From assembly GCA_965222235.1 (NCBI GenBank), contig OZ244939.1, positions 184,585 to 248,584 of the forward strand: a DNA stretch of 64,000 bases, read 5' to 3'. Origin of the DNA: Minisyncoccota bacterium (lineage in GTDB: Bacteria; Patescibacteriota; Minisyncoccia; Phycocordibacterales; JABAAK01). Position 1 is the stretch's first letter. The number at the start of each line of letters is the position of its first letter. Positions 21,682 through 58,126 of the stretch are shown in pieces. The notes beneath the pieces were generated by a model that had not been told where the DNA came from, searched no databases, and saw only the letters and a program-made list of their open reading frames with translations. A program made the position numbers and the translations under genes.

Positions 21682-21707
21682 CTTAATGGTTCAATACATT
21701 TGCACAT
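21682..21707. repeat. IS481-family terminal inverted repeat, left copy (26 bp)
   Basis: Exact reverse complement of 22618-22643. Confidence 0.85.
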
Positions 21708-22597: not shown

Positions 22598-22617
22598 ACA
22601 TCTGCAGTATCGCTGCT

Positions 22618-22643
22618 ATGTGCAAATGTATTGAACCATTAAG
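22618..22643. repeat. IS481-family terminal inverted repeat, right copy (26 bp)
   Basis: Exact reverse complement of 21682-21707. Lies about 20 bp upstream of the transposase ATG. Confidence 0.85.
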
Positions 22644-41690: not shown

Positions 41691-41761
41691 GCGGGTATAG
41701 TTCAGTGGCAGAACGTAGCCTTCCCAAGGCTAAAACGAGGGTTCAATTCCCTCTACCCGCA
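41691..41761 (+). tRNA. tRNA-Gly (anticodon CCC)
   Basis: GCGGGTATAGTTCAGTGGCAGAAC...TAGCC-TTCCCAA-GGCTA...GAGGG-TTCAATT-CCCTC-TACCCGCA. A typical tRNA-Gly acceptor and D arm with a short variable loop. Confidence 0.8.
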
Positions 41762-41861
41762 CTTAAGTGTAAAAGAAGGATGGTACCCAGTTCCCCATTG
41801 ATGCCCCGAACTATAGACGGAGTGCTTATATTGCATTGTTATGCCTAATCATCAACAGGAC

Positions 41862-44144
41862 CTATTTTTGACCGGTTGAAATTATTTTATCCAGAATTTC
41901 AATCTCTCGCCGCATACTACTATCTCCAATACTATCAATTTCATCAGCAAGATACTCTCTCAACGTGGTCATGATTGAGCGGTATTCGTCTGATAATGCG
42001 AGACGATTGGATGTTCGTTCCCACCTGCCCAGTTCGGTAATAACCTCGATAACCGGTATACCTTCCTCACGGTAGCGAATGATCGGGATTTCTATTTGTG
42101 CTTCCGGAGCAAGCTCCGCTTCGTGCACAATCCAATCCTTCATTACATTCACATACCGTGACAAAACCACCCCTTTGTGAATGCCGGAGTTTGCGAAATA
42201 TTCCTCGTCGTCAGCACTGTCAAATTGAATATCTTGTTCATTTGTAAACTCTTCTCCCGAACGATTTTCATAGCTGACTCCGAGCTTCAGTTTTGCATCG
42301 TTGGTTAGCTTGCTGAGATGGAGGAGCACCAACCCACCTCTTGTTTCCTCGTTTATTCGTTCTGACGGGAAGAGGGTGCTCACTTTCATGAGTTCGCCGG
42401 TTGACAAATCTGCTTCGGGAGAGCCGTATACAGCATGAATGTCATACCCTTCTGATTCTAGGTTCAGTGTCAGGTCAAATACCAATGGAGTAACCATGTA
42501 GTCAAATCCGTCATCCATACGGTCTGTAAAGCCCTTTGCTGAGTGTACAGAGTAATAGTTTGCCCCTTTGGTCTTGGTGATTTCATTAATAAGTTCAGTA
42601 TTGAAATCAACACCTATACCAATAAAAGTGGTGTAAATGCCGTCATCAGCATTTTGCTTTGTAAGTCCAAATAAACCTTCCTCGCTGATTTGGCCCGTAT
42701 TAGGCATGGCATCAGTCAAAAAGATAATCCGGTTTTCATACTCGCTCCGATCCGAATCCTTAAATCTCTGGAAAAGTGCGGTGCCGGCCTGATACCCCGC
42801 TTCCATGTAGGTGCCGCCCGTCGGTATTATCTCAAGAATGTGGCTTTTGATTGCGTTCATATCAGTGCTTTCAACGCTGCGAAGACCCTTCGCGACATAG
42901 GCGCTACTCTCAAACAGAACCATTGCAAATCTATCTTTCAATTCAAGATGATCTAAAAGAGTTACAACCGATTCATTGGCGATTTTCATTTTTGACCGAT
43001 TATCAAACTCTTCCGCTGTACCAACGACATTCTCATGGTCTGTTCTGAATCGGTCATAGTAATAGCGATTAAACGATGAACCCATTGAACCAGATATATC
43101 AAGTACCACCACCAGGTTGAGCTTTTTTCGCCTAAAGTCATCCTGCCTGATGTCGGAGTTCAGACCGACCGATAAGAAGTGCTCCGTACTGCCGGAGAAC
43201 GGATCTCTTGAGACCGCGGTAGTGTATGAAGGACAAAATAAGTCAGTGCATGCCGCCTGAAGACCGGTATCAAATGTGTAGTCATAGAAGATACCTTCGT
43301 GAGTGATATCAGTTGGCACCGGAAGGTACCCATTGTTGATGTTTTCACGGAAGTTGTTTATATCGTTTGCTCCGCCCACCGCCAAACCGATTGTGTCAGA
43401 TTGGCTAAGCTTGACCGCCTGAAAAGAAAGACTGTCCAACGTAGCGTGCTGCACAAAACGAGATACGCCTTGCGCCATGAACTGAGTAACCATCCAAACA
43501 ACTAACAGCGGAACAAGCAATAAAATGTAGTAAAGGGAGAACAAAAACTTATTTCTGCCTGTTCGTCTGGTTATATCGTCCCCGCGATTACGAATCCAGT
43601 TGTATATGCCGCCGAAGAACAGGCATGCTATAAGCAGCAGAAAGGCAATGCCGATAGCACCGAATATCCAGAGCACAAGCGCTTCATTATTCTCAAAAAA
43701 AGCGAGCAAACTTCCGTGCAGGTTAAAAGCAAAAACCACCAAAACGACATAGAGCAGGACAACAAAACAAACAGCCGGCGCGCCCAACCAAAGGCGATGC
43801 TTTTTCCATACAGAGCTGCTATATTCACTTCGTGTCTTATCTGACCCACGCTTATGCTCTTTTGATATGAGTCCTTGGGAGAATTTGTATAACGGGAACC
43901 CAATGTAGGCAACAAAAAGAACTGCAAGTAAAACAACAATGATTTTGCCACCCAGTCCCGATTCTGCCCAAGATGTGGTTAAGCCCGATATGAGCGAAAA
44001 GCCTCCGTCATACATCCAATCGTCTACTTTACTGACACCAAAATCGTTGAATATATTTCTTATGACTGAAATAATTGATGGCAGCAATGGAATTGCTAAA
44101 AAAATACCCAGTGTTGTCCAAAAAGTTTGCTTTTTCATGATCAC
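41862..44144 (-). CDS. multi-TM membrane protein with an extracytoplasmic von Willebrand factor A (VWA) domain
   Basis: About six N-terminal TM helices. The VWA MIDAS motif DISGSMGSS is followed by the conserved downstream T and D. It is the first gene of the AT-richer island. Confidence 0.65.
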   Translation of the reverse strand: MIMKKQTFWTTLGIFLAIPLLPSIISVIRNIFNDFGVSKVDDWMYDGGFSLISGLTTSWAESGLGGKIIVVLLAVLFVAYIGFPLYKFSQGLISKEHKRGSDKTRSEYSSSVWKKHRLWLGAPAVCFVVLLYVVLVVFAFNLHGSLLAFFENNEALVLWIFGAIGIAFLLLIACLFFGGIYNWIRNRGDDITRRTGRNKFLFSLYYILLLVPLLVVWMVTQFMAQGVSRFVQHATLDSLSFQAVKLSQSDTIGLAVGGANDINNFRENINNGYLPVPTDITHEGIFYDYTFDTGLQAACTDLFCPSYTTAVSRDPFSGSTEHFLSVGLNSDIRQDDFRRKKLNLVVVLDISGSMGSSFNRYYYDRFRTDHENVVGTAEEFDNRSKMKIANESVVTLLDHLELKDRFAMVLFESSAYVAKGLRSVESTDMNAIKSHILEIIPTGGTYMEAGYQAGTALFQRFKDSDRSEYENRIIFLTDAMPNTGQISEEGLFGLTKQNADDGIYTTFIGIGVDFNTELINEITKTKGANYYSVHSAKGFTDRMDDGFDYMVTPLVFDLTLNLESEGYDIHAVYGSPEADLSTGELMKVSTLFPSERINEETRGGLVLLHLSKLTNDAKLKLGVSYENRSGEEFTNEQDIQFDSADDEEYFANSGIHKGVVLSRYVNVMKDWIVHEAELAPEAQIEIPIIRYREEGIPVIEVITELGRWERTSNRLALSDEYRSIMTTLREYLADEIDSIGDSSMRREIEILDKIISTGQK

Positions 44145-44346
44145 ATTGTGCCAAGAAAATCGGCATTTATACTACATTTTTATAATACCACCATCTTCCA
44201 ACTACGACTAAAAGAATCCACACAATGTAAAATAGCTGTATATGCTGCGGATTCCCGAGTCAAATTCCTACCGTATGAAAACGCTGCCGGCTGCCACAAC
44301 ACAAGTACGGAAACAAGACATACCGCCAACATGCTATACTGCCAGT

Positions 44347-44511
44347 ATGAAAAAAGATAATGAACATAAAGTACACGACGTACAAAAAAAGGTTCCTATC
44401 CTTAAAGCGCATGAGGTGCGCGACAAGTTCACTGATAAAGAATTTGAAGTGTTTGCTAAAGATATTCGGGATCGTTTCTTACCTGCGTTTAAAAAACTCG
44501 CTAAAGAATAG
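44347..44511 (+). CDS. candidate antitoxin (small charged protein immediately upstream of doc)
   Basis: ORF of 54 aa (MKKDNEHKVHD...) ending 3 bp before the doc start. Position and size fit a Phd-like partner. There is no sequence-family evidence. Confidence 0.4.
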   Translation: MKKDNEHKVHDVQKKVPILKAHEVRDKFTDKEFEVFAKDIRDRFLPAFKKLAKE

Positions 44512-44514
44512 TGT

Positions 44515-45006
44515 ATGGATTTTACCTATCCGCCGAAAGATGAGATGAGGGTGCGTATTGAAAAAATCAAAAATCTCTGCGAAAAAGAAAAAGATTCTTT
44601 CCTTGCAAGGATGTTCGCTTCACCCGACCCGCATGATAAGACAGTGGTGTTTGACTACATTGACGATGAATGGATAGACACGGTACACGGAAAGATTCAG
44701 TCGGTCGCTGAAAGCAGTATGTATAACGGTGACGGTACCGTTGAGCACCGAATCGCCTATATCTGCGTTGACATTAACACAGCGCATCGTTTCGGCAACG
44801 GTAACAAACGTTCAAGCCTGTTGACCTTACTTTTACTCCTCATCTACAACGATATGTGGGAGCGAATTCGCATGACAAATGATACAGACATCTACAACCT
44901 CGCCAAAAAGATCGCACGGGAGGGCTCAGCGGGGAGAGATAACAATATCATTGCTCTTCGTGAATGTCTCAAACACGGCAACTTTAAAAAATGTACCGAG
45001 ATTTAA
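44515..45006 (+). CDS. doc: Doc (death-on-curing)/Fic-fold toxin
   Basis: Doc-type Fic motif HRFGNGNKR (consensus HxFx(D/N)GNKR) in a protein of about 160 aa. Confidence 0.7.
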   Translation: MDFTYPPKDEMRVRIEKIKNLCEKEKDSFLARMFASPDPHDKTVVFDYIDDEWIDTVHGKIQSVAESSMYNGDGTVEHRIAYICVDINTAHRFGNGNKRSSLLTLLLLLIYNDMWERIRMTNDTDIYNLAKKIAREGSAGRDNNIIALRECLKHGNFKKCTEI

Positions 45007-45176
45007 TTCAATTTAAATAATCACATACCTAGCTCTACGGGTACAACGAGTCATGGACTTTGAGATTACCGAGATGTACGCGTGTCGTGTCTGTGACTAC
45101 TCTGTCTGCGTATGTAGTGTCTCATATCCCGCCGAACGCTGTGTCTGCCACGCCACAGAGCATCCTTGTTTTTTAC

Positions 45177-45644
45177 TCATCTTCCGGTGTAGGGGCGCAT
45201 TATACCGTTGTCTTCATTGATCCAGAATCTCTTGCCGGCATTCGGACCAGTGAAGTATATTCTACCGCACTCGCACTGCTCTCCCGTCTTATCCGGCTTG
45301 CAGATTCCGAATCTATCGTAGCGATAATTGTTTTCATCGTAAAGTACTGATGCAACCGACGGAATGATCGGACACACCAGCGGTTGTTTTGATGGGGCGG
45401 ATGTTTTCTCAGCTGAGATGTTTTTGAGCGCTTCCGTTACTTCCTGAAACCCCCGGTCAATTTGCTCCAGAATTTCTTCTATTGCTTTGTTGTCTTCATA
45501 CCGGGAAAATGTCTCAACAGGATTAATCGCACCGGTGCTACGCAATAGCGGGCTGTACGAGCCGGTTACAAAGCCGAGTATGAACAGCGCAAGCCCAACA
45601 ACCAACATACTGCAGATAATTTTGTGTTTTTGGCTCATATGCAC
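45177..45644 (-). CDS. hypothetical membrane-anchored protein
   Basis: N-terminal TM (IICSMLVVGLALFILGFV) and a C-terminal region with four Cys. No recognisable family. Confidence 0.35.
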   Translation of the reverse strand: MHMSQKHKIICSMLVVGLALFILGFVTGSYSPLLRSTGAINPVETFSRYEDNKAIEEILEQIDRGFQEVTEALKNISAEKTSAPSKQPLVCPIIPSVASVLYDENNYRYDRFGICKPDKTGEQCECGRIYFTGPNAGKRFWINEDNGIMRPYTGR

Positions 45645-45789
45645 CCATCATTATACTTTATATGTCATTAAGTTTCAGATTGAATTCGCACCTGAAGTGC
45701 AACAAAAAGAAAAAACACATACGCCCGCTTGGTACTATGGATATGTTACTAACCATAACCAAACAGGCGTATGTACACTCATAGTACCA

Positions 45790-46407
45790 TTACTAAGTGG
45801 TATACACCACCAGAGAATCTATGACCGGGTAAGAAGAGAGCGACCGGATCTCAAAGACAGGTTGCCGAGAAAAGGAAGGAAGAAAAGAAAGAAAACAGGA
45901 AAGAGGACAGTATGGGTCAGTACAACACGGTCAATACACAACAGACCGGAGACAGACGGGCTCTCCCGGGAGGGAGACACACTGGTGGGGCCGACAAAGA
46001 CAAGAATACTCACCCATGTGGAGAGGAAAAGCTTGTATCTTGATGCCAGAGTCATACGAGACGGTTTGTCCTACACCGTACATGAGACACTGCAAAAGAG
46101 ACCGCTGCAGGGACAAATCACCTATGACTGCGGTTCTGAATTCACCCTATGGAAATGGATAGAAGAGGATACGGGAGCGACTGTCTACTTTTGTGATCCT
46201 CATTCCCCGGGACAGCGGGGCAAGAATGAGAACACTACCGGCAGGCTCAGACGAGTCTACCCCAAGAACACTGATCTCAGCACGATAGCACAACAGAATC
46301 TCAACAATATTGTCCACCTCATGAACAACACCCCGAGGAAGTCCCTTAACTGGAAAACTCCCGCTCAGGTGTATACTGCACTTGTTGCATCTCAGTCGAG
46401 AGTCTAA
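45790..46407 (+). pseudogene. IS30-family transposase, 5'-truncated remnant (catalytic DDE domain only)
   Basis: The C-terminal 200 aa match the IS30 catalytic region (EGDTLVG ... YDCGSEF ... YFCDPHSPGQRGKNENTTGRLRRVYPKNTDL ... NNTPRKSLNWKTPAQVY). The N-terminal HTH domain is absent and no terminal inverted repeats were found. Confidence 0.65.
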
Positions 46408-46497
46408 TAAACGCAAAGGAAAACACATATCAGGAAAATATACAGCAAAATCAAGAAAAAGGAGGGCATTTCATTATTTCAACAAATTATCCGGAAT

Positions 46498-46602
46498 ATG
46501 ATGCTTTTTCCCACAATGTTTGTGTTACAATGCAATACATATGAAGGAGGGAAAAGAGTACATCCCGAGGTCGCAGGAACCAAAACCTTTCATGGAAGGA
46601 GC
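46498..46602 (+). repeat. direct repeat, left copy of the pair bracketing the RHS locus
   Basis: The 97-bp stretch at 46506-46602 is identical to 57499-57595, verified base by base. It carries ...ttgtgttacaatgcaatacat ATG AAGGAGG..., so it includes a start codon and an SD-like purine tract. This copy is followed by only a 29-codon ORF. Confidence 0.85.
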
Positions 46603-47247
46603 AAGGAAGAGGGAGGCGAAGTGGTGAGGGGAGAGCGAGGGCGAAGCGAAGCACAGCCCGAACTGACCCGAGCCCTGAGGCGATCGATGACGAAGTGAAC
46701 TCGCGAAGCAAAAGGACGGAAGGGGGAATACTGTACCTGCCGCGCCTTTCACCGACGACATTTTCTTTTTCCTTTGCCCCGTCGTGCGAGACGCAGTTCT
46801 GTCAAAGACATGATGACTGTCCACTCTCCATACCGTACCGGTACCTGGCTGTCTCGAGCACGCGGGGTGCGGGGTGCGGTTGAATTGCAAAAGAAAATGA
46901 CGACGGTGATTGGCGCGGGGAGCGGCGCGGAACACTTTGCGCGTTGCGAGCTTGCGAGTGGCGCTCCTTTGTTGGTTAAAGTGTTTACTGTGCGTACGGA
47001 GCGTATGGTTTGGTTTGGAGCTATGGGGCGAGTGGAGCGTGCGAGTTGGGAGTGTTTAAATTACACTGTTTCCGGAGTTCGTGGACAATGTAGGTTACTG
47101 TACTTTTGGGTAGTGTTTTGGAACTCTCTGAAGTTTGAGCACAATCTCCTAAACGGCACTTAGAGGTAAAAGATAGCACTATGCGATTGTTTATTCAGCT
47201 CTGCTGATCCTACTCGGCATAGTATATATTTTCTTTTAAAAACCTTT

Positions 47248-47892
47248 TCAATCCCATGGTATTTTATTTTCGTTTTCATCTACCGGGTAGTAATCTAAGA
47301 TAACACCATTTCTAAGAAAAGGAGATAGGGGCAGGTGATGGAAGTAGTACCTTTGACCTTCTTTGGGTCTGTGAGGTTGAAGGAATAAGTAGGTGTTTAG
47401 ACTGTTTTTTGCGCGTGCACTCCCACCGATATTAAATTCCGGATCCGCGATATTTATATGAGTACTCCAACCGAATGCACCCTGATTATAACTTTCAACT
47501 GTGTATATCTTTTTAATAGAAACATCCCCATAGATTAAAGAGATCATAGTATATTTTATGGCGGGGAATAAATAAAATAATAGGAAGATTCCTACAAAAA
47601 ACCCCATAAAATGGAGTGTGACTGCCATCTTGTTTGGTTTTCTGCGGGGAGAGATAAAATTGTACAACCCCTTTTTATTTCTTTTGTACAAAAAATAGTC
47701 TGTTTTGTACATTTCAAATAGAAGTAAAAGGGACACTGCACTGTAGAAGGAAAAATAAAAAATCCAGCTTGCCAACCATTCCGGTAGAAAAAATTGTGAT
47801 ATGGAAATAGTCACAAAAAAAACAGTACCGGTATATTTATAAATAGGATTTCCCTTGAAAAATTTAATGATTTTCTTTAGAATGTTCTTCAT
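47248..47892 (-). CDS. candidate immunity protein for the orphan RHS C-terminal toxin (3-TM membrane protein, paralog of 49369-50013)
   Basis: Protein of 214 aa. Its start overlaps the orphan toxin stop by 4 bp. It is roughly 50-60% identical by eye to the protein following the full-length RHS gene. Three predicted TM helices and a roughly 100-aa C-terminal soluble part. Confidence 0.55.
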   Translation of the reverse strand: MKNILKKIIKFFKGNPIYKYTGTVFFVTISISQFFLPEWLASWIFYFSFYSAVSLLLLFEMYKTDYFLYKRNKKGLYNFISPRRKPNKMAVTLHFMGFFVGIFLLFYLFPAIKYTMISLIYGDVSIKKIYTVESYNQGAFGWSTHINIADPEFNIGGSARAKNSLNTYLFLQPHRPKEGQRYYFHHLPLSPFLRNGVILDYYPVDENENKIPWD

Positions 47893-49400
47893 CTTCCTGA
47901 CTGTAACTCTGCTATTTGTCTTTTTATTCGTGTTATCTCTCTTATTAAGTAAGAGATTTTTTCTCTTTTTGCTCGCGCAGCCTGATAGGTTTCTATGTGT
48001 CTCCCTACTCCGCTATAAAAGGATTTTGGAAACGATCTTGTTGTCTCAGCAACAAAGCCTTTCAATCCTGTTGTAGCACTTACACCAAATATAGAAACGT
48101 TTCCGTTGCTAAGTTTTGTGAGTGTTGATGAGTACACTGCAGAAAAACTGTTGGAACCACTTGTAATGCCAGATATTTTTATATATTTGCCAATACCAGA
48201 AAAAACAGCACTCTCAAAAAATCTTGAACTAAGTCTTGCAAAATTAAACTCCTGATTCGGGTCCTTATGCATCTCCCATCCTTGCTCAATTGAATCTCTG
48301 ACTACACCACCAGCAGTGCCTGCAATGATAGCAGCTAGTAAAGAAGTACCTACTACCAGCCCTCCGGTAGTAGCACCTCCGGCTGTAGCTGCAATATATT
48401 TATACCCTTCAGAAACCTCACCGGCAATAACATCAGTAATCACCTGAGAACCTGCCCCTACTAATACACCAACTGTGACACCAATCGCTATATGCGCCAA
48501 CTCCCCATCCCTATCCTCATAGCGCAGAGGATTATTCATAGCATACGCATAGGTATGGTGTGCCTGAGGATTGGTAAGGTAGTCAAGAAACGATACGCCT
48601 GTTGCTGCCTCAAACGCCACCGGACCTCCTATGTATTCTATTACCGGATCTTTGGAGATAAACAGTCCTTTATTCGGATCGTAGTATCGAGCATTTCTGT
48701 AGATAAAGTCTGTTTCATCCGTTATATTCCCCGTATGGGTATAGAGTGAATCTGTTGTGGCTGTTTCCGTATGTTTTTCTCCGTAGGGGTAGTAGTCTAT
48801 TGTTTGGGTTACCGTTCCTTCTTTATTTATTCCCGCAATGGTACTTCCCAGTGCATCAGTGTAGAGATGGGTGTGCTGTGTTTTCTTGCATCGGGTGTCT
48901 TCTGTATTCGGGGATACAGTGACTGCTGTTTCATTTCCTCTTTTTACTACGATATTACCGTTTTCCGTTACCTTTGTATACTCTGTCTCCGGTGTGAGAG
49001 TGAAGAGGAGACTGGTTTGTGTGAGGAGACAAAGATCACTTACCCCGCTTACATTCTTGATACTTCCTATCACTTCTCCTTCGGCGAAGATGTGTGTTTC
49101 AATAGTACCGTTTTCAAGGGTGTAGTACGGATTTACAAAAACTGTACTACCTGTCCCCTTTGTTTCTTTCACCCGATTACCTTCATGATCATAGAGATAG
49201 GTGTAGGTGTCAGCTCCTTCGGTGATTGTTTTTACTCTGCCTTTGTAGTCCCAGGTAAGGGTGTTGGTTCCGTCTGTCAGGAAGTTTCCGTTTGTGTCAT
49301 AGGTCTGTGCCGCTGTGCCTACTGTAGTGGGCATGTGGGGGGTGGTGAAGGTTGTCTCATCGATTGTTCTACTCATCATATATCCTATTTCTATTTTCAT
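47889..49400 (-). CDS. orphan RHS C-terminal module: the last YD repeats, the RHS core (...RYYDPNKGLFISKDP...) and a diverged C-terminal toxin domain
   Basis: Residues from DETTFTTPHMPTT to NNPLRYEDRDGELAHIAIG are near-identical to the C-terminal part of the 50010-57374 protein. The last 200 aa diverge (VTVGVLVGAG... versus AAIGAAIGAL...). It has its own ATG (MKIEIGYMMSR). Expression is uncertain. Confidence 0.7.
   Translation of the reverse strand: MKIEIGYMMSRTIDETTFTTPHMPTTVGTAAQTYDTNGNFLTDGTNTLTWDYKGRVKTITEGADTYTYLYDHEGNRVKETKGTGSTVFVNPYYTLENGTIETHIFAEGEVIGSIKNVSGVSDLCLLTQTSLLFTLTPETEYTKVTENGNIVVKRGNETAVTVSPNTEDTRCKKTQHTHLYTDALGSTIAGINKEGTVTQTIDYYPYGEKHTETATTDSLYTHTGNITDETDFIYRNARYYDPNKGLFISKDPVIEYIGGPVAFEAATGVSFLDYLTNPQAHHTYAYAMNNPLRYEDRDGELAHIAIGVTVGVLVGAGSQVITDVIAGEVSEGYKYIAATAGGATTGGLVVGTSLLAAIIAGTAGGVVRDSIEQGWEMHKDPNQEFNFARLSSRFFESAVFSGIGKYIKISGITSGSNSFSAVYSSTLTKLSNGNVSIFGVSATTGLKGFVAETTRSFPKSFYSGVGRHIETYQAARAKREKISYLIREITRIKRQIAELQSGR
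48479..49362. repeat. duplicated RHS core segment, orphan copy (about 884 bp, near-identical to 50615-51498)
   Basis: The ORF track shows identical antisense ORFs at 48492 and 50628. Only a handful of mismatches were seen. The boundaries were read from where the alignment breaks: above 49362/51498 and below 48479/50615. Confidence 0.85.
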
Positions 49401-50013
49401 CTACTGGGTAGTAATCTAGTATGACCCCTACTCTAAGAAAAGAAGAAAGGGGTAAGTAATGAAAATAATATTCTTGATCTGGTTTCGGTCTGAACGGGTG
49501 TAAAAATAAAAAGGTGTATAAACTGTTCCTTTCGCTTGCACTACCACCGATATTAAATTCGGGGTCTTTAATATAAATATGTGTTATCCAACCAAACCCA
49601 CCCTGACCAGACTTTTCAACCGTGTATACCTTTTTAATAGAAACATCTTCATGAGCTAAGGAAACAACAGTGTGTTTAATGACAGGAAGGACAGAGAATA
49701 AAACAAGAATAATCATAAGAGATTCTAAAATACGTAGTACGAGTAATGTTTTGGTTGGTTTCTTATTAAAATAAAGATAGGCATGTAATCTTTTTTTATT
49801 TTTTGTATATAGAAAGTAAATCGGTTTGCATAACTCAAACAAGCAAACAAAAAACATGGCAGTATAGAAATAGAAGTAGAAAATCCACGTTGATAGCCAT
49901 ATTGGTATGAAGTATTTCGGTACAAAGAGGACAATGAAAAGACCGATGCCGATATAGGTATAGATAGGGTGTTTCTTAAAAAATCTGATAATTTTTTTCA
50001 AAATGTTCTTCAT
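49369..50013 (-). CDS. candidate immunity protein for the full-length RHS toxin (3-TM membrane protein)
   Basis: Its start codon overlaps the RHS stop in an ATGA arrangement at 50010-50013. Protein of 214 aa, paralogous to 47248-47892. Confidence 0.55.
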   Translation of the reverse strand: MKNILKKIIRFFKKHPIYTYIGIGLFIVLFVPKYFIPIWLSTWIFYFYFYTAMFFVCLFELCKPIYFLYTKNKKRLHAYLYFNKKPTKTLLVLRILESLMIILVLFSVLPVIKHTVVSLAHEDVSIKKVYTVEKSGQGGFGWITHIYIKDPEFNIGGSASERNSLYTFLFLHPFRPKPDQEYYFHYLPLSSFLRVGVILDYYPVDENRNRIYDE

Positions 50014-53000
50014 CTTCTTGATTGTAGTGCTCTGATCCTTCTTTTTAATCTTGTTATTTCTTTTCGTAAGTAAGAGATTCTTTTCCTGATGCTTTGTGTC
50101 GTTATGTTGCTGTTATGTACACGTCTCTGAGTTCCTTCAAAAAAAGATTGAGGAAGTGATCGTGTTGTTTCAGCAACAAAGCCTTTTAATCCTGTTTTAG
50201 CACTCACATTAAGTATGGAAGCAGTGCCCCTACCAACTCGTGTGAGTGTTGATGAGTATGTTGAAGAAAAACTATGAGAACCTTTTGTGACATATGGAAT
50301 TTTTACAAATTTGCCGGCACCAGAAAGAAGAGAACTTCCTATTGTCCTAAAACCAAATCTCACAAAATTAAATTTCTGATCCTCGTTTTTATGCACCTCC
50401 CAACCTTGCTCAATTAAATCTCTCGTTGCCCCACCGGCACCTCCTGCAAGAAACAAACTGGCACCTCCTGTACCCGCTGCTATTGTCCCGGTAGTAGCAC
50501 CTCCAACCCCGGCAGCAACATAGCGGTAGGGATCAGAAACCTCTCCTGCGATGACATCAGCAACTACTTGAGAACCTATTCCTGCTAGTGCACCAATCGC
50601 AGCACCAATCGCAGCACCAATCGCTATATGCGCCAACTCCCCATCCCTATCCTCATAGCGCAGAGGATTATTCATAGCATACGCATAGGTATGGTGTGCC
50701 TGAGGATTGGTAAGGTAGTCAAGAAACGATACGCCTGTTGCTGCCTCAAACGCCACCGGACCTCCTATGTATTCTATTACCGGATCTTTGGAGATAAACA
50801 GTCCTTTATTCGGATCGTAGTATCGAGCATTTCTGTAGATAAAGTCTGTTTCATCCGTTATATTCCCCGTATGGGTATAGAGTGAATCTGTTGTGGCTGT
50901 TTCCGTATGTTTTTCTCCGTAGGGGTAGTAGTCTATTGTTTGGGTTACCGTTCCTTCTTTATTTATTCCCGCAATGGTACTTCCCAGTGCATCAGTGTAG
51001 AGATGGGTGTGCTGTGTTTTCTTGCATCGGGTGTCTTCTGTATTCGGGGATACAGTGACTGCTGTTTCATTTCCTCTTTTTACTACGATATTACCGTTTT
51101 CCGTTACCTTTGTATACTCTGTCTCCGGTGTGAGAGTGAAGAGGAGACTGGTTTGTGTGAGGAGACAAAGATCACTTACCCCGCTTACATTCTTGATACT
51201 TCCTATCACTTCTCCTTCGGCGAAGATGTGTGTTTCAATAGTACCGTTTTCAAGGGTGTAGTACGGATTTACAAAAACTGTATTATCTGTCCCCTTTGTT
51301 TCTTTCACCCGATTACCTTCATGATCATAGAGATAGGTGTAGGTGTCAGCTCCTTCGGTGATTGTTTTTACTCTGCCTTTGTAGTCCCAGGTAAGGGTGT
51401 TGGTTCCGTCTGTCAGGAAGTTTCCGTTTGTGTCATAGGTCTGTGCCGCTGTGCCTACTGTAGTGGGCATGTGGGGGGTAGTGAAGGTTGTCTCATCGGA
51501 GGTAAGATAAGTATAGTTGCCGACACCCGTTTTTGAGGTTATATTCCCTATCGCGTTGTATGTATAGCTTCTTGTGTAATTGTTTGATCCGTTATTGGTT
51601 ACTGTTGCACTAATGAGACGATTCATATTGTCATACGTGTATGCTTTGTTTACCGCTGTACCCGATGTGTTAGTATCAATCGTAGCAGTTATGTTACTGT
51701 CTCTGTCGTAGGTGTACTCAAGTTTTCTCGCAACAGCGATACTATTCCCCTTCACTTCCCTTATTGTCAGTCTTCCCGATGAATCGTATGTGTTTGTTTC
51801 TTTTGATCCGTTTGATCCGGTTTTTGTGTCAACCAGACCGAATACGTTGTAGGTAAGGGTTGTAAAGGGAGTATCGCTCACGGATACCGAAGAAACTCTG
51901 CCATTTTTTCCGTAGATGTTTTTAATAACAGTGCTGTTCGGAAGTGTTGTGGTGACTATGCCATTCTGTAAATTATGTGTATAGGTTGTTGTGTATGCGG
52001 TGCCGCTGATTGTTTTCACCTCTTCTTTCAGATTTCCTTCTTTATCGTATTTATAGGTCGCATTAACACTATCCGCTGAGGTAACAGAACAGATGCTTCC
52101 TTTTCCGTTCTCACAGGAATCGTATGTATACTGATAATCCGTTCCTGTAACAGATGCTCTGTCCTCCGTTAATGCCCTGCCGAGTGCATCATAGGTATAT
52201 GCTATAGCGGTTCCGTCCCGCTTTGTTTTTGATGTCAGGTACTCCTTGTTATACGCAAATTGCAGTGTCTTGTATGTCGTATCACTCGTGTGATGTAAAT
52301 CCTCAATGCTTGTGGTTCGTCCTATCATGTCATACTGTATACCACGGACATTATTCAACGCATCCTTCACTTTAATAATGCGATCCAATGGATCGTAGGT
52401 ATAGGTGGTGGTATGGGTGGAGGCACCGTCTATTTCATGCACCCTGTGCAGACGCCCGTAGCTGTCGTGTTCCAAACGTTTTTTCCTGTCCTCCGCCGAG
52501 GTAATTTCAACCGTATGCCCGTCATATGATGAAGTTGTTGTTCCGACCGGATTAACCACAGATACTATTCTGTTCAGCCCGTCATAGGTTGAGGAAGTGT
52601 TTGACGTGCCGGTTGGTGTTGTTGCATATGAACTTGTTGATGACTGGTACGGCATGTATTTTTTCTCAATCAGTCCCCGCTCGGTGTATGTTACATCCTC
52701 AGTATCAAACTTCGTGCCGTTAGATGTTTTTGTCTGTATTGTTCTGCCCAGACCGTCCATGTATGTCTGTCCGATTCTGGTTGCTGATCCGAAGTGCTCC
52801 CTCCTTTGCACTGAGTACGGACGATTTGTAAAGTTATACGAATAATCCGCCACTGTCTCTTTTGTACTTGCCCGTTTTTTCTTTATCGCCGTTATTCTGT
52901 CAATTCCGTCAAATTCGTAGTATATCTCAAAACCGTTCGGGTCTGTTATTTTTGTTACCTCTCCTGATGTTTCGTCGTATTCATACTGTGTGACATGTGA

Positions 53001-56000
53001 GAGTGGGTTGGTTTCCTGTGTCAGACGCAGTGAGTTGGTGTCATACGTATAGGTTGTTGTGTTGTTCAGGGAATCATTTTCCGTCAGCACCCGCCCTCTC
53101 GTGTTGTATGTGTAGGTTCTTTTTTGCTTTGTCGTGCCGTCTATCTTTCTCTTTTTTGTGAGCATATTCCCATTTGAGTCGTAGGTATACTCATTTTCAA
53201 CAATAATCACATCCGATGCATTTTTTATCGTTTCCTCGGACAGCAATGAAACTATATAATTGGTCGTGTCCGGCGTTTTGTAGGTGTACACTACCTTGCG
53301 CAATACGGCGGTTCCGCTCTTTTTTGTCTCAGTGAGCACATTACCGTATGTGTCGTAAGTGTATTCCGTGCTGTTTGAGTAGTCATCACCGAATGTTACA
53401 TTGCCGCTGCCGTATACCGTCTTTTTCTCTTTTGTCAGGTACATGTATGTGCTGTTTGTGCCGTTGCTGGTTTCCCCGTATGTGTATTCAATCTTTTCAA
53501 GAAGAATGTTCGACTCGCCTTCATTTACTGCCGCTTGGTATATTTCTTTCTTGTACGGAAGTCCTATTTTTGCATACGAGTCAGTCGGTTCCGCATTGGT
53601 GCTATTCTGCCCATTTCCCTGGTGGTAGTATATTTTTTCTTTTCTGTTTCCCCGTGTTCTCTCCACTGTTTCAAAACCGGCGAACTTTTTGTCAGACGGA
53701 CCGTTAAAGTAGTAATACCCGCCTGTGTACCCGAGAGTTTCCGTGTTGTCCGTGGCATATGTATCCGTATATGCAATTGAGGAGACGATGCGGAGGGGAA
53801 ACGGCACCCTGTTGGTTGTATCATGCACTCCGGCACCGGTGTACGATATATCAAAACTGCCGCCGTATTTGGTAGTGATTGTGTCTAATTCAAACGTGTT
53901 GTCAGCAATGAAGTATTTGTAGTCATATCCAAAATTTCTTCTCCCCACTCTTTGCTTTTTATAGTACACATCATTTATTCCGTCGCCGTTTACATCTATC
54001 ATGGCATTTACATATATATTTCCGTTTGAGTTTGATCCGGCATGTTCTAATATACCTGCATTCCTGAGAGCGTCGGTATATTTCTTACTGTATTGATACC
54101 CATCAATACCCTTACTCAAATAGACTCGGTATCCGTAGTTATGTGTTTTGGTTATATCTTTGATATTTCGATCAATATCTCTATCGTTATAAATATCGGT
54201 GACAATGAGGTCATACATACCATCCGTGTTTATATCCTTCCATGATCCGGCATATCTGTCAGTACTGAAGTTATTGTTTCCGTCGGCAAAATAAATTGTG
54301 GGGTAATTCAAGTAATCAATGTCCGCCGACCAGCCGAACCCATTATTGATTTTAGATCTACTTATATCAGCAAGACCGTCACCGTTGTAGTCAATAAGGA
54401 AGTTCGGAACTCGTAACCCGTAATAGGGACCGTGATAGGGATCCCCCCTGTTGTAGTACAGAATATACGGTACTGATATGGTGCTTGACTGTACCGGATT
54501 AAATCCGTCGGCGTTTAGAAACACAAGTGTTGTAGTGTAATCCCTCCATCCGCCACCACGAGTATGCCTATCATACCTCTTTGGAAATACATCCAACGTC
54601 CCATCTCCGTTTATATCACCCAGACCGTCAGCCCATGAGGAATGAAAGTCCCTGTTAATAGAGGTTCTGCTGAAGGTGTTGAGTGAGCCATTATTCTTGT
54701 ATATATAACTGTTAGTACTGCACCTCTTACATCTTCTTGTTATGACCTGAAGAAAATCAGGGTAATAATCGCCGTTCATATCAAACTTACCCTGAACGCT
54801 ATCAAATGTCGGAAACATATCGATTGCGGAGTTAAAACCGTTACCATTGTTCACCTGAGTATCATTTGTCGCCCCCAAGGAAACAACATCAGGCATACCA
54901 TCCCTTGTCGCATCTGCAAGACCTGACGGACCGGTAGATCCATAACTGCTGTTTTCCGTGTATGAAATAGTGTCAGTGTATCCAAACGTTGTTTTCGGTT
55001 CGGTTGTCCAATTGCCGTCTGCATCCTTGCCGTATTTGTACAACGCTTTGATAACATACGTGTATTTCAATTCATTGACAAGTTCAAGATCCTGTTTGTA
55101 TGAAAATAGTTTTTCCGTACCTTTGTAAAAGTCAATGCCGTTTATTATGTACTTCGTTTTTACCGGAAATCCTGTATTGAAAAGTTTTGTCTTATCATTT
55201 CTCCCCTGTTTGGTGAATTGGAGCGAATACACATATGATCCTCCGGAAGTATTTACATACTCTATCTTCTTCGGGTATATCTGCCCGTGGTCTTTGGTGT
55301 ATGTGTACTCTATCGTGTTGCCATTTGTATCTTCTATCTTTTCAAGCATCCATTTGAACGTTTCTGTTTCCCACTGTACCGTGCCGTCCTGACGCGCCTG
55401 CAGAGTTTCACCGAAGTAATACTTCGTACCGACGGTATCAGTTACTACCCAATAATCACCAATTTTCTCGTATTTTCTGAATGCTCCTTTTTCTGTCCTC
55501 GGCTTATACATCTCCGACTGTGTGGTACTCTTTGTTGTTGTTTCACTTATTTTGTATGTGTATACCTCACCCCCATCGTACCACCGGTTTCGGCGACTGT
55601 CAAACCTGGTAACTCCCGCAGCGATATATCCTCCGTCAAGAGATATTGATCGCGCAGAAAAATCACCTGTGATGTCGGGGGGAATTACTTTTCTCTCAAA
55701 TCCCCAGGTGCCGTCACTTTTCTCTTTATACACATAAAACATATACTTTCTATGTTCTGTATCCCTTGCGCCCACTGTTAAGGTGTCTCCGTCGAGCAAA
55801 ACACCCCATGAACCGAAAACAATGTTCGAGTGGCTGTCTGACGCTTTCAGTTTCACCGGATTACCCCATGTTCCGTCTGATTCTCTCGTGTATACATACA
55901 CCGCACCAGAGGATTCAATACCGGTACTCTCCCCACTCATACCGATTGCCAAGGTGTTTCCGTTGATTGCAACAGATGTGCCGAATGGGGTTTTTCCTAT

Positions 56001-57374
56001 TATGACTTGATTTTCATATTTTGTAGTATTGCCGGGCTTGCTTGCATTACCCCACCCTCCGTTCACATCCTCTTCGTATATAAATACTGCCGGACCGTTG
56101 CCTGTAGTAACTACAAGACGATTTCCTGCTAATGAAATACGATCTCCGAACTCTCCTGAAGTGTTGCGATTCCCATATCTGGCGCTCGGATACAGTGACT
56201 CTTTTTTTATCCACGAACCCGCATCATTCCGTTTATATACCTCAATATACCACCATGACTGTCTATCCCTCGCCTTCACCGCCAGTATGTCATCATCAAG
56301 GTATACGGTATCAGCAGACCGAACCTGAATTTCCGTTCTGTTTCCCCACACATCATTCGTCCCCCTTTTATACACAAATACCTTGTTACTTGAAACCGTG
56401 ACAGCCAAATAATCTCCTGATAGGGAAATATTTTCTCCGAAACTGGAATATGTGGCATCCGACAATCGTTGTAAAAAAGCCCACGAGCCGCTACTCTGCC
56501 TCTTGTATATATACACCACACCGTCTGCTCCATTTCTTTCGTTGTCGTCTAAGTCGTATGTAGGGGCACTCATAGCAAGGTAGTCCCCGTTTAGTGAAAC
56601 CCTTTGTCCGAACCGGCTGCTTGCTTTCCAATCGGTCGGCACAATTTTCTGTTTACTACCGATGGCATACTCCTTTACGGGATATGATGTAGACGATATA
56701 CTTGCCGTATTTTGTTTTACTATTTCACCGTCCAGTGATGAAATATAATCATCGTTTGTATATATTTTATTTGAACCCTTTTTTGTTGATCGCTCTATAT
56801 ATGGTATATCCACTTCCCAACCGTACCCGAATATGCCGTTATTCTTTTTGTTGGAACTCTTGAAAACAAGATTGTGCTGAGGAGTAAACCCGTTTCTCCC
56901 TTCGGGGACGGTAAGAGAGTATGAATAGGTGAGTGATCCGTCTAAATTGTCTATCAATGGGTGAATAACATTCCCTGATGATTTTATTGTTCCCGTTGTC
57001 CCGGATGAAGAGCCCGATGCCCCTGATGCCCCATCTTCAGTATCCTGATTATCAACATAATCGTCAGGCAACTCAAAGGACGGGTGAATGGGGCCCCCGC
57101 TATCAACAGAACCCTGAGCGGGAGGTTCCGGCAAATCACCGATTCCGTCATCCTCATCCGGCGATACGGTACCGCTCGGTCCGTCCTCTATCTGCCCTGA
57201 CGGTCCCGAAGTTTCACCCTGTGCATAAGAAACCAACGGGTTAAGGACAAGGAGCAGTGAAAGTGTAAAAGAAAGGAGTACCGATGATATTGAATGATAT
57301 CTCTTATTGCGAAACGGTACAATAGTATCAAGTGAACTATACGAACTGGTTACCATATTAAAGAAACGGTACAT
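50010..57374 (-). CDS. giant RHS/YD-repeat polymorphic toxin, a fused TcB/TcC-like cocoon protein: signal peptide, SpvB-like N-terminal domain, FG-GAP/VCBS beta-propeller repeats, YD repeats, RHS core and a variable C-terminal toxin domain
   Basis: Start set at MYRFFNMVTSS, 57374. The ORF-track extension to 57731 runs through the divergent promoter region and is judged artefactual. Signal peptide ISSVLLSFTLSLLLVLNPLVSYAQG. SpvB-like block GSLTYSYSLTVPEGRNGFTPQHNLVFKSS...GYGWEVDIPYIERST. DxNGDGxxD repeats (DINGDGTLDV, DYNGDGLADI, DVNGDGINDV). Dozens of YD repeats (YTYDTNGN, YEYDETSG, YTYDALGR...). RHS core RYYDPNKGLFISKDP ... NNPLRYEDRDGE, followed by a 208-aa C-terminal domain rich in glycine-zipper motifs. 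Confidence 0.85.
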   Translation of the reverse strand: MYRFFNMVTSSYSSLDTIVPFRNKRYHSISSVLLSFTLSLLLVLNPLVSYAQGETSGPSGQIEDGPSGTVSPDEDDGIGDLPEPPAQGSVDSGGPIHPSFELPDDYVDNQDTEDGASGASGSSSGTTGTIKSSGNVIHPLIDNLDGSLTYSYSLTVPEGRNGFTPQHNLVFKSSNKKNNGIFGYGWEVDIPYIERSTKKGSNKIYTNDDYISSLDGEIVKQNTASISSTSYPVKEYAIGSKQKIVPTDWKASSRFGQRVSLNGDYLAMSAPTYDLDDNERNGADGVVYIYKRQSSGSWAFLQRLSDATYSSFGENISLSGDYLAVTVSSNKVFVYKRGTNDVWGNRTEIQVRSADTVYLDDDILAVKARDRQSWWYIEVYKRNDAGSWIKKESLYPSARYGNRNTSGEFGDRISLAGNRLVVTTGNGPAVFIYEEDVNGGWGNASKPGNTTKYENQVIIGKTPFGTSVAINGNTLAIGMSGESTGIESSGAVYVYTRESDGTWGNPVKLKASDSHSNIVFGSWGVLLDGDTLTVGARDTEHRKYMFYVYKEKSDGTWGFERKVIPPDITGDFSARSISLDGGYIAAGVTRFDSRRNRWYDGGEVYTYKISETTTKSTTQSEMYKPRTEKGAFRKYEKIGDYWVVTDTVGTKYYFGETLQARQDGTVQWETETFKWMLEKIEDTNGNTIEYTYTKDHGQIYPKKIEYVNTSGGSYVYSLQFTKQGRNDKTKLFNTGFPVKTKYIINGIDFYKGTEKLFSYKQDLELVNELKYTYVIKALYKYGKDADGNWTTEPKTTFGYTDTISYTENSSYGSTGPSGLADATRDGMPDVVSLGATNDTQVNNGNGFNSAIDMFPTFDSVQGKFDMNGDYYPDFLQVITRRCKRCSTNSYIYKNNGSLNTFSRTSINRDFHSSWADGLGDINGDGTLDVFPKRYDRHTRGGGWRDYTTTLVFLNADGFNPVQSSTISVPYILYYNRGDPYHGPYYGLRVPNFLIDYNGDGLADISRSKINNGFGWSADIDYLNYPTIYFADGNNNFSTDRYAGSWKDINTDGMYDLIVTDIYNDRDIDRNIKDITKTHNYGYRVYLSKGIDGYQYSKKYTDALRNAGILEHAGSNSNGNIYVNAMIDVNGDGINDVYYKKQRVGRRNFGYDYKYFIADNTFELDTITTKYGGSFDISYTGAGVHDTTNRVPFPLRIVSSIAYTDTYATDNTETLGYTGGYYYFNGPSDKKFAGFETVERTRGNRKEKIYYHQGNGQNSTNAEPTDSYAKIGLPYKKEIYQAAVNEGESNILLEKIEYTYGETSNGTNSTYMYLTKEKKTVYGSGNVTFGDDYSNSTEYTYDTYGNVLTETKKSGTAVLRKVVYTYKTPDTTNYIVSLLSEETIKNASDVIIVENEYTYDSNGNMLTKKRKIDGTTKQKRTYTYNTRGRVLTENDSLNNTTTYTYDTNSLRLTQETNPLSHVTQYEYDETSGEVTKITDPNGFEIYYEFDGIDRITAIKKKRASTKETVADYSYNFTNRPYSVQRREHFGSATRIGQTYMDGLGRTIQTKTSNGTKFDTEDVTYTERGLIEKKYMPYQSSTSSYATTPTGTSNTSSTYDGLNRIVSVVNPVGTTTSSYDGHTVEITSAEDRKKRLEHDSYGRLHRVHEIDGASTHTTTYTYDPLDRIIKVKDALNNVRGIQYDMIGRTTSIEDLHHTSDTTYKTLQFAYNKEYLTSKTKRDGTAIAYTYDALGRALTEDRASVTGTDYQYTYDSCENGKGSICSVTSADSVNATYKYDKEGNLKEEVKTISGTAYTTTYTHNLQNGIVTTTLPNSTVIKNIYGKNGRVSSVSVSDTPFTTLTYNVFGLVDTKTGSNGSKETNTYDSSGRLTIREVKGNSIAVARKLEYTYDRDSNITATIDTNTSGTAVNKAYTYDNMNRLISATVTNNGSNNYTRSYTYNAIGNITSKTGVGNYTYLTSDETTFTTPHMPTTVGTAAQTYDTNGNFLTDGTNTLTWDYKGRVKTITEGADTYTYLYDHEGNRVKETKGTDNTVFVNPYYTLENGTIETHIFAEGEVIGSIKNVSGVSDLCLLTQTSLLFTLTPETEYTKVTENGNIVVKRGNETAVTVSPNTEDTRCKKTQHTHLYTDALGSTIAGINKEGTVTQTIDYYPYGEKHTETATTDSLYTHTGNITDETDFIYRNARYYDPNKGLFISKDPVIEYIGGPVAFEAATGVSFLDYLTNPQAHHTYAYAMNNPLRYEDRDGELAHIAIGAAIGAAIGALAGIGSQVVADVIAGEVSDPYRYVAAGVGGATTGTIAAGTGGASLFLAGGAGGATRDLIEQGWEVHKNEDQKFNFVRFGFRTIGSSLLSGAGKFVKIPYVTKGSHSFSSTYSSTLTRVGRGTASILNVSAKTGLKGFVAETTRSLPQSFFEGTQRRVHNSNITTQSIRKRISYLRKEITRLKRRIRALQSRR
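50615..51498. repeat. duplicated RHS core segment, copy inside the full-length gene (about 884 bp)
   Basis: See 48479-49362. The offset between the copies is 2136 bp. Confidence 0.85.
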
Positions 57375-57488
57375 ACATGCAAACACTAATATTACTATGA
57401 TACCTTTTAAATTAACCCGCGACTCACTTTCCCACTTTGGAGGCGCCGACCCGGCGCGGTTGCGCCGCATATGATGCGGAGAAAAGAC

Positions 57489-57595
57489 ATGATGTTCCTT
57501 TTCCCACAATGTTTGTGTTACAATGCAATACATATGAAGGAGGGAAAAGAGTACATCCCGAGGTCGCAGGAACCAAAACCTTTCATGGAAGGAGC
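57489..57595 (+). repeat. direct repeat, right copy, including the promoter/RBS/start of the 57533 gene
   Basis: The 97-bp stretch at 57499-57595 is identical to 46506-46602. It lies in the divergent intergenic region between the RHS gene on the minus strand and the 57533 gene on the plus strand. Confidence 0.85.
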
Positions 57596-58094
57596 GGCGT
57601 ATAGGCCTGGGGAAATCATACATTTTGACCAGGCAACCAAAGAGGAGGTTGTGGAGATTTTGAACAATCAAGATTTGTCTCAAAACGAGCGGGAGAAACG
57701 TGTTTTCACATATCTTAAAAATCATCCGCAAGATCAGCTAGTTATTGAGGGACAGATAGATGAAGTAACCTACGACGGCATTGAGAACCTGCCCCTTCCG
57801 GAGAAATATGTACTATTCTCGCATCTAATGCGAAAGTGGGATGAAAATAAATCCGTAAAAATGGAGTTAAGGAAAACCGTTGAAACCATATTTAAACGGG
57901 AGGATATCAGTGAGACAGAACAGGATGCCCTCATATCCAAGTATGTGCAAGAACAAGGTTTATCGGCAACAGATACCGATCTTCTTATACAGAAAATTGT
58001 AACCCGAGGAACCGGCAGTTTGAGCAGAAAAGAAAATGTCGCTCTTTACACAGCCCTTGAAGAGAATTGGAAACAACAGCATCACCCGCACTAA
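57533..58094 (+). CDS. hypothetical soluble protein, AT-rich, divergently transcribed from the RHS gene
   Basis: Start chosen at ATG AAG GAG GGA (MKEGKEYIPRSQ...). No recognisable family. AT-rich composition like the rest of the island. Confidence 0.4.
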
Positions 58095-58126
58095 TCCGCG
58101 GTATCATACACATTCTATAGGAATAT

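Follow-up and report, generated by a model that had tools for sequence, protein, structure and literature searches.

Introduction

Among the polymorphic toxins that are built on a shell of RHS repeats, the described class that most resembles the gene considered here is that of TcdB/TcaC, which Zhang, de Souza, Anantharaman, Iyer and Aravind characterised in 2012 by a signal peptide, an SpvB domain, an integrin-like propeller, RHS repeats, a variable toxin domain, an immunity gene and stand-alone cassettes (PMC3482391). Natural fusions of the B and C subunits are also known among the Tc toxins (PMC7861908). The present report deals with a gene of this layout, called rhs below, which lies on the minus strand at positions 50010 to 57374 of a 64,000-nucleotide stretch of Minisyncoccota bacterium DNA (the window; contig OZ244939.1 of assembly GCA_965222235.1), and with the small genes that follow it. 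We consider it reasonably probable that rhs encodes a horizontally acquired polymorphic toxin of the TcdB/TcaC type (BC-type RHS), independent of TcA, exported by Sec and antibacterial, with a membrane-depolarising C-terminus.

Three further groups of toxins bear on this reading. In Pseudomonas aeruginosa, Tse5 combines an Rhs shell and aspartyl autocleavage with a small hydrophobic pore former that binds membranes interfacially, inserts into them and depolarises cells, tsi5 being the immunity gene (PMC10684867). The bacterial teneurin-like proteins have a Sec-exported YD shell, a propeller, a PxxxxDPxG motif, a polymorphic C-terminus of about 15 kDa and a downstream immunity gene, and the C-terminal domain of the Bacillus inaquosorum protein damages membranes only from outside (PMC13018210). 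Finally, TelE and EsxX, which are LXG effectors of a secretion system of type VII (T7SS), carry C-terminal toxins rich in glycine zippers that depolarise or perforate membranes, and each has a cognate immunity protein (PMC10434224, PMC12744356).

Results

Domain architecture of the rhs protein

The original prediction had described an intact giant gene for a cocoon-type RHS/YD polymorphic toxin with an SpvB N-terminus, a propeller, an RHS core and a variable C-terminus, and both the gene and the domain order were borne out. From ATG 57374 to TGA 50010 the open reading frame (ORF) holds 2454 codons plus the stop with zero internal stops, and all the peptide strings quoted earlier occur in its translation; the longest open frame reaches TTG 57731, and the start is ambiguous between ATG 57374 and ATG 57356. 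Profile searches with the protein gave matches far beyond chance, in Pfam to RHS_repeat (E = 1.4e-23), FG-GAP_2 (7.8e-21), SpvB (7.3e-15, in two stretches) and FG-GAP_3 (5e-5), and in NCBIfam to YD_repeat_2x (4.9e-18) and Rhs_assc_core (1.2e-11), both of the latter over their curated cut-offs. On this evidence, and on that of its homologues, the product is a BC-type (fused TcB/TcC-like) RHS polymorphic toxin of 2454 amino acids (aa). Scans for promoters and terminators returned chance level only.

The first 51 residues (57222..57374; this and all other features of the rhs module lie on the minus strand) form a putative Sec signal peptide, as had been proposed, with the order RNKR, about 20 hydrophobic residues and SYA|QGE, where the cut is predicted; the call was made by eye and from a hydropathy peak alone. 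An SpvB domain follows, split in two by an additional propeller of about 390 aa. Its first part, aa 144-227 (56694..56945), matches PF03534 at profile positions 3-84, and its second part, aa 622-698 (55281..55511), is the second Pfam SpvB stretch and matches residues 112-192 of PDB 6p0x. The inserted FG-GAP_2 beta-propeller (aa ~235-620, 55515..56672; PF14312, E = 2.2e-24) is all-beta in its AlphaFold2 model, with a predicted local distance difference test score (pLDDT) mostly of 41-84 in blocks of ten. It is common only to the two closest homologues, P0001 and P0002, and is missing from the homologues of about 30% identity, which cover about 66% of the query. The closest relative of this extra propeller within the genome (27% identity, E = 2e-12) is that of a core-genome surface protein encoded 11 kb from rhs (36468-38981; 837 aa), in which five FG-GAP_2 repeats are combined with PG_binding_1 at the C-terminal end.

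Further on comes an integrin-like FG-GAP/VCBS propeller (aa ~815-1140, 53955..54932; PF13517), the likely equivalent of the TcB 'gatekeeper', whose six DxNxDGxxD calcium-type motifs are invariant across an alignment of ten sequences (rhs and nine homologues); it was poorly modelled, with a pLDDT of about 40-55. The YD/RHS-repeat shell occupies aa ~1200-2148 (50931..53777; PF05593, TIGR01643), and its PDB sequence matches are RhsA (7Q97) and Tse5 (8CP6), the Tse5 match being weak.

An AlphaFold model of aa 130-1250 (pLDDT 60.6) was compared with the PDB by Foldseek. TcB/BC cocoons made up all of the 12 best matches and 13 of the best 14 (E 4e-17 to 7e-13), among them 6H6E_F, 9C4K_P, 6L7I_F, 4IGL_A and 4O9X, over about 950 aligned columns, with the Rhs shells of type VI secretion systems (T6SS) ranking below them. 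Since the template modelling score (TM-score) is low, at about 0.25, these matches back the domain order and fold of a TcB cocoon, in line with the original prediction, and not its detailed geometry. The families of the TcdB middle region, TcdB_toxin_midN and midC (PF12256/PF12255), gave no match at a maximum E of 1 on aa 700-1250 and 1100-1500, while PF12256 is present in several more distant homologues.

The RHS core and its predicted cleavage site

Residues 2149-2246 (50637..50930) correspond to the RHS core, a predicted aspartyl autoprotease plug, with TIGR03696 scoring 44.9 bits against a cut-off of 32.5 over aa 2149-2245. In TccC3 the catalytic residues are D651 and D674, and a conserved PxxxxDxxG precedes the cut (PMC7861908); in Rhs1 the second DPLGL motif supplies the catalytic aspartate (PMC8636562). 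The rhs protein reads P2237-LRYE-D2242-RD-G2245-E2246|L2247, which fits PxxxxDxxG, and R2184, D2197, D2242 and G2245 are invariant in the ten-sequence alignment. Its second motif is DRDGE and not DPxGL, and similarly relaxed forms occur in relatives from the candidate phyla radiation (CPR), namely DRNGE, DKQGE and DPDGQ. Because of the match to the published TcC/Rhs residues, the invariance of the residues concerned and the relaxed forms in relatives, autocleavage is predicted after E2246, and the residues that the original prediction proposed to look for near the core are in place.

Putative immunity genes and orphan cassette

The stop codon of rhs overlaps the start of a small gene as ATGA (...AGAAGATGAAGAAC...), as had been noted before. 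This putative immunity gene 1 (49369..50013) encodes 214 aa with three hydrophobic segments and a C-terminal domain; its charge distribution suggests an N-in topology with three transmembrane segments and the C-terminal domain outside. Only four relatives of the protein were found in 5.8 billion proteins. Next in order is an orphan rhs 3' fragment (47889..49400; 503 aa), in which about 290 shell/core codons are joined to an alternative C-terminal domain, and which matches Rhs_assc_core at E = 1.9e-13 and 50.7 bits (cut-off 32.5). ATGA-coupled to the orphan in turn is putative immunity gene 2 (47248..47892), also of 214 aa and 57% identical to immunity protein 1.

Over the shared core of 861 nt the main gene and the orphan differ at 3 positions (synonymous divergence dS 0.005), and their identity collapses exactly after ...NNPLRYEDRDGE, meaning at the predicted cleavage site. 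Beyond it, the two C-terminal domains differ with dS 0.78 and a ratio of nonsynonymous to synonymous divergence (dN/dS) of 0.43, and the two immunity genes with dN 0.29 and dS saturated, values which indicate that both C-terminal/immunity pairs are under purifying selection. Judged by gene order and divergence, the succession main gene, immunity, orphan, immunity is the classic orphan rhs-CT/immunity arrangement. The whole layout recurs in the metagenome-assembled genome (MAG) of a member of the Saccharibacteria (L068), whose C-terminal domain aligns with ours at E = 9e-15. A pseudogene reading of rhs was dropped, given the intact ORF and the purifying selection on the C-terminal and immunity genes. 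Neither the RHS nor the orphan protein was matched in exact look-ups, since gene calls differ.

The C-terminal domain family

The candidate toxin domain, aa 2247-2454 (50013..50636), belongs to an uncharacterised family that is rich in glycine zippers and predicted to be all-helical. Neither this domain nor the immunity proteins matched a Pfam or NCBIfam family. A word-indexed search with the domain found nothing, but an exhaustive profile search started from both window copies recovered 202 cluster representatives, 24 of them at E <= 1e-10. The matches always lie at the C-terminal end of proteins, which places the family after RHS cores; PxxxxDxxG precedes the domain in 92 of the 149 that were checked among the matches listed. 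When 45 members were scanned, 20 had RHS repeats, 8 DUF6531 and 4 SpvB, and in none of the 45 did a Pfam domain lie over the C-terminal region, which in one member touches Gly-zipper_YMGG. A metagenome scan with a narrow C-terminal alignment yielded 4 loci.

The family consensus is GAxxGAxVGxxxQxISDxxxGxxSxWxxYxGAAVGGAVGG...AGAxGG...GITxGRNSFxAVxKQxxTKLxNGTI. In rhs the domain starts LAHIAIGAAIGAAIGALAGIG, and this start reads as a textbook glycine zipper, G-AAI-G-AAI-G-ALA-G-I-G, with a second Gly-rich helix in addition. An AlphaFold model from 24 sequences (pLDDT 75.8) has six helices, at domain residues 2-30, 36-56, 61-83, 91-110, 123-135 and 146-207; the domain is Gly/Ala-rich, and three of the six predicted helices (2-30, 36-56, 61-83) are of transmembrane length. 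A profile search of the PDB gave NDUFA11 as best hit (E = 0.26, non-significant), and Foldseek with the model found nothing in the PDB below E = 1.

Six distinct contexts include sequence downstream of a family member, and in five of them the next gene encodes a small polytopic membrane protein; these five are both window copies, the Saccharibacteria locus L068, and L091 and L092, the exception being L089/L090. Two loci from Saccharibacteria carry other domains at the corresponding place: an orphan in L068 (3382-5314) has a different Gly-rich domain and a membrane partner of 170 aa, and a homologue in L009 (5727-6383) has an HExxH metallopeptidase-like C-terminal domain. As far as can be judged from these two domains, they show the polymorphism typical of toxins within CPR RHS proteins.

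Composition, mobile elements and transfer of the locus

The rhs module lies in a low-GC island of about 16 kb (41863..58100), with 40-48% GC against 50-58% in the core. Third-position GC is 0.43 in rhs and 0.33-0.37 in the immunity genes, compared with 0.57-0.69 in core genes (rpoB, rpoC, secD, ftsX, uvrC and others), and the comparison of island and core that the original prediction proposed thus identifies rhs as compositionally foreign. The island begins directly after tRNA-Gly(CCC) (41691-41762); no tRNA-derived att repeat was found at its far end. It also carries a gene for a VWA membrane protein and, on the plus strand, a 5'-truncated remnant of an IS30-family transposase (45487..46407; NF033563, E = 2.4e-38), which matches profile positions 72-267 and lacks the N-terminal 71 positions. 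At 44242-45006 the island encodes a Doc (death-on-curing) toxin (TIGR01550, E = 1.7e-7, with a weak Fic/DOC Pfam match), preceded by an ORF of 89 aa that could be its antitoxin.

The whole rhs module, about 11 kb in length, is bracketed by a direct repeat of 105-107 nt, 97-100% identical between its copies. Copy A (57489..57595) abuts, on its 5' side, the transferred rhs segment that is described below, and copy B (46498..46602) about 650 nt beyond immunity gene 2. The repeat looks like the recombination footprint of an insertion. Within it are a TGTTACAAT that resembles an extended -10 and some 18 codons from the beginning of a plus-strand gene of 183 aa (57543-58094). Copy B would accordingly represent a second copy of the promoter with a 5' stub of that gene, running on into unrelated sequence.

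The same gene recurs on L005, a 78-kb contig of a sister sample, with 98.6% nucleotide identity over window positions 57499-50871, the homology ending at 57499, on the inner edge of copy A. Its neighbours there are unrelated to those in the window, and this goes for its upstream neighbour too, which in the window is the 183-aa gene; the L005 flanks have 37-45% GC, which matches the gene's own composition. The presence of the gene in two different genomic backgrounds therefore points to a recent move between them, most simply from a lower-GC lineage into the source genome, and the near-identical copy appears to document a recent exchange of the putative weapon within one community. L005 has 3x coverage, and the gene is split there among three ORFs. 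At 16597-17578 of L005 the gene stops at about codon 2168, immediately ahead of the RHS core, and is joined to DNA of 66% GC that encodes a Tat-signal Gfo/Idh/MocA-like oxidoreductase; this join may mark a true truncation or come from a chimeric end of the contig. Parts of the locus recur in separate assemblies (L004, L088) with 99.5-100% identity.

Downstream of immunity gene 2 is a GC-rich (about 55-60%) non-coding spacer (46603-47240) with CCGCTCCGC-like motifs. Weak, mostly collinear reverse-strand patches (E 0.01-0.6) relate it to L005 9400-9970, upstream of rhs, and a contig of another sample departs from the window inside the spacer, at about 46921 (L088 1589-1654). We did not adopt a circular-permutation relation between the spacer and the L005 upstream region, as it rests on these patches; the divergence may reflect a circular intermediate or a variable region.

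Relatives and genomic context

Full-length homologues range from P0002 (40% identity) to loci of about 30% identity in Saccharibacteria and Parcubacteria. The latter relatives come mainly from MAGs of Candidatus Saccharibacteria and Parcubacteria/Paceibacterota, and also from Proteobacteria, Nitrospirota and others. One homologue is annotated as 'SpvB/TcaC N-terminal domain-containing protein [Candidatus Paceibacterota bacterium]', and such a gene in a CPR-type genome is therefore not unprecedented in the databases, so that the claim that it is unusual for these organisms had to be given up. The nearest relatives of the RHS, C-terminal and immunity sequences point to Saccharibacteria; the flanking regions of related loci have no informative genes in common. 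We found no description of such systems in the literature on the Saccharibacteria and Parcubacteria phyla, and no relatives among viral contigs.

The window is dense in housekeeping genes (aminoacyl-tRNA synthetases, scpAB, rpoA/B/C/D, dnaG, secD, ftsEX, prfB, murJ, uvrA/C, RNase P) and has no rRNA within its 64 kb. In a look-up against clusters of about 15 billion proteins, the 90% identity clusters of RpoC (14632-18315), FtsX, UvrC, a Mur ligase, MurJ, RF2 and the 837-aa FG-GAP_2 protein hold 1-2 sequences each; RpoB, SecD and a spondin-domain protein were not matched under the start codons tried. The source organism is very sparsely sampled, and these small clusters, together with the single contig of 641,294 bp on which all seven proteins lie, make a small and rarely sampled genome likely. 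With the nearest relatives considered as well, the CPR-like genome of the original prediction is plausible, although the prediction put it too firmly. Two features stand apart from the rhs locus. Beside rpoB, in the core gene cluster, an element of about 960 bp (21682-22643) with perfect 26-bp terminal inverted repeats (21682-21707 and 22618-22643) and an ORF for a 304-aa rve_3/HTH_32 transposase looks like an intact insertion sequence. The RF2 homologue at 40699-41562 is short, at 287 aa, and aligns with the prfB profile only from position 117 of 353 onwards; a tRNA-Thr gene abuts its start and leaves no space for the frameshifted N-terminal part that is usual, so that the protein seems to be without most of domain 1.

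Discussion

While the architecture, the cleavage motif, the toxin/immunity/orphan layout, the foreign composition and the recent transfer are read from the sequence itself, how the rhs protein might work can be proposed by analogy with Tse5, the bacterial teneurin-like proteins and TelE/EsxX, on which the suggested export, cleavage, membrane attack, immunity function and target organism are all modelled. The protein of 2454 aa would be exported by Sec, and its SpvB segment, integrin-like propeller and YD repeats would fold into a closed shell. Inside it, the aspartyl protease of the RHS core would cut after E2246 and leave the C-terminal domain of 208 residues loose. On touching a neighbouring cell, perhaps by way of the extra FG-GAP_2 propeller, the shell would then release this hydrophobic helical domain, which would insert into the cytoplasmic membrane of the target and dissipate the membrane potential, while the translationally coupled protein with its three putative transmembrane segments would guard the producer's own membrane. 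The orphan would be a spare cassette that may replace the expressed toxin through homologous recombination, and its immunity gene may protect against kin with that variant.

Several observations weigh against this proposal. The Sec leader is a heuristic call, and the N-terminal model is of moderate quality only, both in its pLDDT (60.6) and in its TM-score (~0.25). No characterised pore former resembles the C-terminal domain significantly in sequence or fold; the family of this domain keeps polar positions (D27, Q77, G-[RSK]-N-S, T-K, K151) that could equally mark an enzyme, and the domain of rhs itself departs from the consensus, with GSHS and TRV in place of GRNS and TKL. A TcA gene may sit elsewhere in the 641-kb genome, and the right-hand junction of the island is without independent assembly support, contig L093 starting inside the repeat.

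The main rival for the last step is a membrane-associated enzyme acting on lipid II, a phospholipid or another envelope precursor, the layout being otherwise unchanged, since the polar positions of the family are near-invariant and are accompanied by a G-[RSK]-N-S...T-K...N-G-T motif. An immunity protein embedded in the membrane would suit an envelope-targeting enzyme as well. However, the domain is predicted to be all-helical, with Gly/Ala-rich helices of transmembrane length, no enzyme family was matched in Pfam or the PDB, and the rhs copy has shed several consensus residues while still under purifying selection; we regard an enzyme as an unlikely alternative. The hydrophobic C-terminus could also be a membrane anchor or structural tail of a teneurin-like surface adhesin or receptor that ties the episymbiont to its host, a role that two propellers would fit, one of them related to the peptidoglycan-binding surface protein of the same genome. 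Such a role would leave unaccounted for the conserved cleavage motif, while the orphan, the paired and co-diverging membrane proteins and the sharp identity break at the cleavage site fit toxin/immunity diversification, and we hold it to be quite improbable.

We think it very improbable that rhs encodes the B-C part of a genuine ABC Tc toxin, which would dock on a TcA pentamer whose gene lies at another place in the genome and inject its C-terminus into eukaryotic or host cells, and the Tc-toxin framing of the original prediction goes too far. Its predicted structure does match TcB subunits of holotoxins best, natural B-C fusions are known, and an SpvB domain with a propeller is the TcA-docking side of TcB. 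Nevertheless, no TcA-sized or TcA-family ORF was found in the 64-kb window or beside five CPR homologues (L008, L009, L011, L036, L068), the TcdB_toxin_midN/midC families were not detected, a genome of about 0.64 Mb would be heavily burdened by a tcA gene of about 7.5 kb, and interbacterial polymorphic toxins are recognised by just such features as a Sec leader, dedicated immunity genes and an orphan cassette. The rhs segment might also have been joined to this contig from a lower-GC, L005-like organism through the 105-nt repeat during assembly. The composition of rhs fits the flanks in L005 and not the core of the source genome, the repeat brackets the segment and short-read contigs break there, and L005 itself ends in the obviously foreign stretch of 66% GC. 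Against such an artefact, an independent assembly (L001) runs unbroken from the left part of the island into ftsX/prfB, contigs with the immunity and C-terminal genes turn up alongside core-gene contigs in both of two read sets, the 641,294-bp contig on which the immunity proteins are recorded also has RpoC and others, and the repeat is absent at the L005 junction; we judge it improbable.

A Sec-exported antibacterial toxin that works without TcA hence remains our preferred reading. Going further, one might speculate, although we would give the idea little credence, that a TcA-independent BC cocoon moves as a cassette of about 11 kb among small-genome (CPR-like) lineages, that the extra, lineage-specific propeller docks on the host bacterium, and that undescribed glycine-zipper toxins permeabilise that host, which would make the system a feeding or killing device of episymbionts and not just a means of kin competition.

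Very few effectors of offence or host interaction are known for ultra-small episymbiotic bacteria, and the rhs locus provides a testable candidate, with a toxin domain small enough to express and two naturally diverged toxin/immunity pairs for tests of specificity. Its double-propeller cocoon is unusual and should work without a TcA injector. The C-terminal domain stands for about 200 sequence clusters that have no Pfam family, and one characterised member would annotate many RHS toxins. The original prediction did not include the orphan module, the island with its mobile debris or the near-identical copy in the sister sample, nor did it recognise the extra propeller or what kind of domain the C-terminal one is. 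While the class as such has been described before, the extra propeller, the uncharacterised C-terminal and immunity families and the recent transfer are new here.

Comparison with known systems

Every defining element of the TcdB/TcaC-type polymorphic toxins is present at the rhs locus, the leader being a heuristic call, and we therefore place the rhs protein in that class. It departs from it in that its SpvB domain is split by an additional FG-GAP_2 propeller, and the 2012 survey was without CPR lineages; its C-terminal and immunity domains are without a match in Pfam, the toxin families of that paper not having been compared. With the BC cocoons of Tc toxins (TcdB2-TccC3, 4O9X/6H6E; YenB-YenC2, 4IGL) the protein shares the SpvB domain, the FG-GAP propeller, the YD shell, the PxxxxDxxG core and a presumably encapsulated C-terminal toxin. 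Unlike them, the locus has a putative Sec leader and immunity and orphan genes, and the expected target is bacterial and not an insect. A TcA partner nearby and the TcdB mid regions were sought and not found, and for this reason we do not regard rhs as a Tc-toxin component.

Tse5 resembles rhs, as far as its sequence tells, in its RHS shell with a cleavage motif, its hydrophobic C-terminus and its cognate immunity gene, but it is delivered by the T6SS through PAAR/VgrG and has neither SpvB domain nor propeller, and its C-terminal likeness to rhs is not one of shown homology. The teneurin-like proteins and WapA of Bacillus and Streptococcus are alike in being Sec-exported stand-alone shells with a propeller, the motif, a polymorphic C-terminus and an immunity gene; they differ in having an FN-plug and an NHL propeller instead of SpvB and FG-GAP, and are often wall-anchored. 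TelE and EsxX, whose immunity proteins are membrane-embedded, are likened to rhs by description and differ in their LXG/T7SS delivery.

Orphan rhs-CT/immunity arrays of Enterobacteria, together with a model of C-terminal displacement, were reportedly described by Jackson in 2009 and Koskiniemi in 2014. The rhs locus shares with these arrays a 3' fragment with core homology, carrying an alternative C-terminal domain and immunity gene, directly downstream of the full gene. Whereas the C-terminal/immunity pairs of the Enterobacteria arrays are unrelated to one another, those of the rhs locus are homologous, with 54-57% aa identity.

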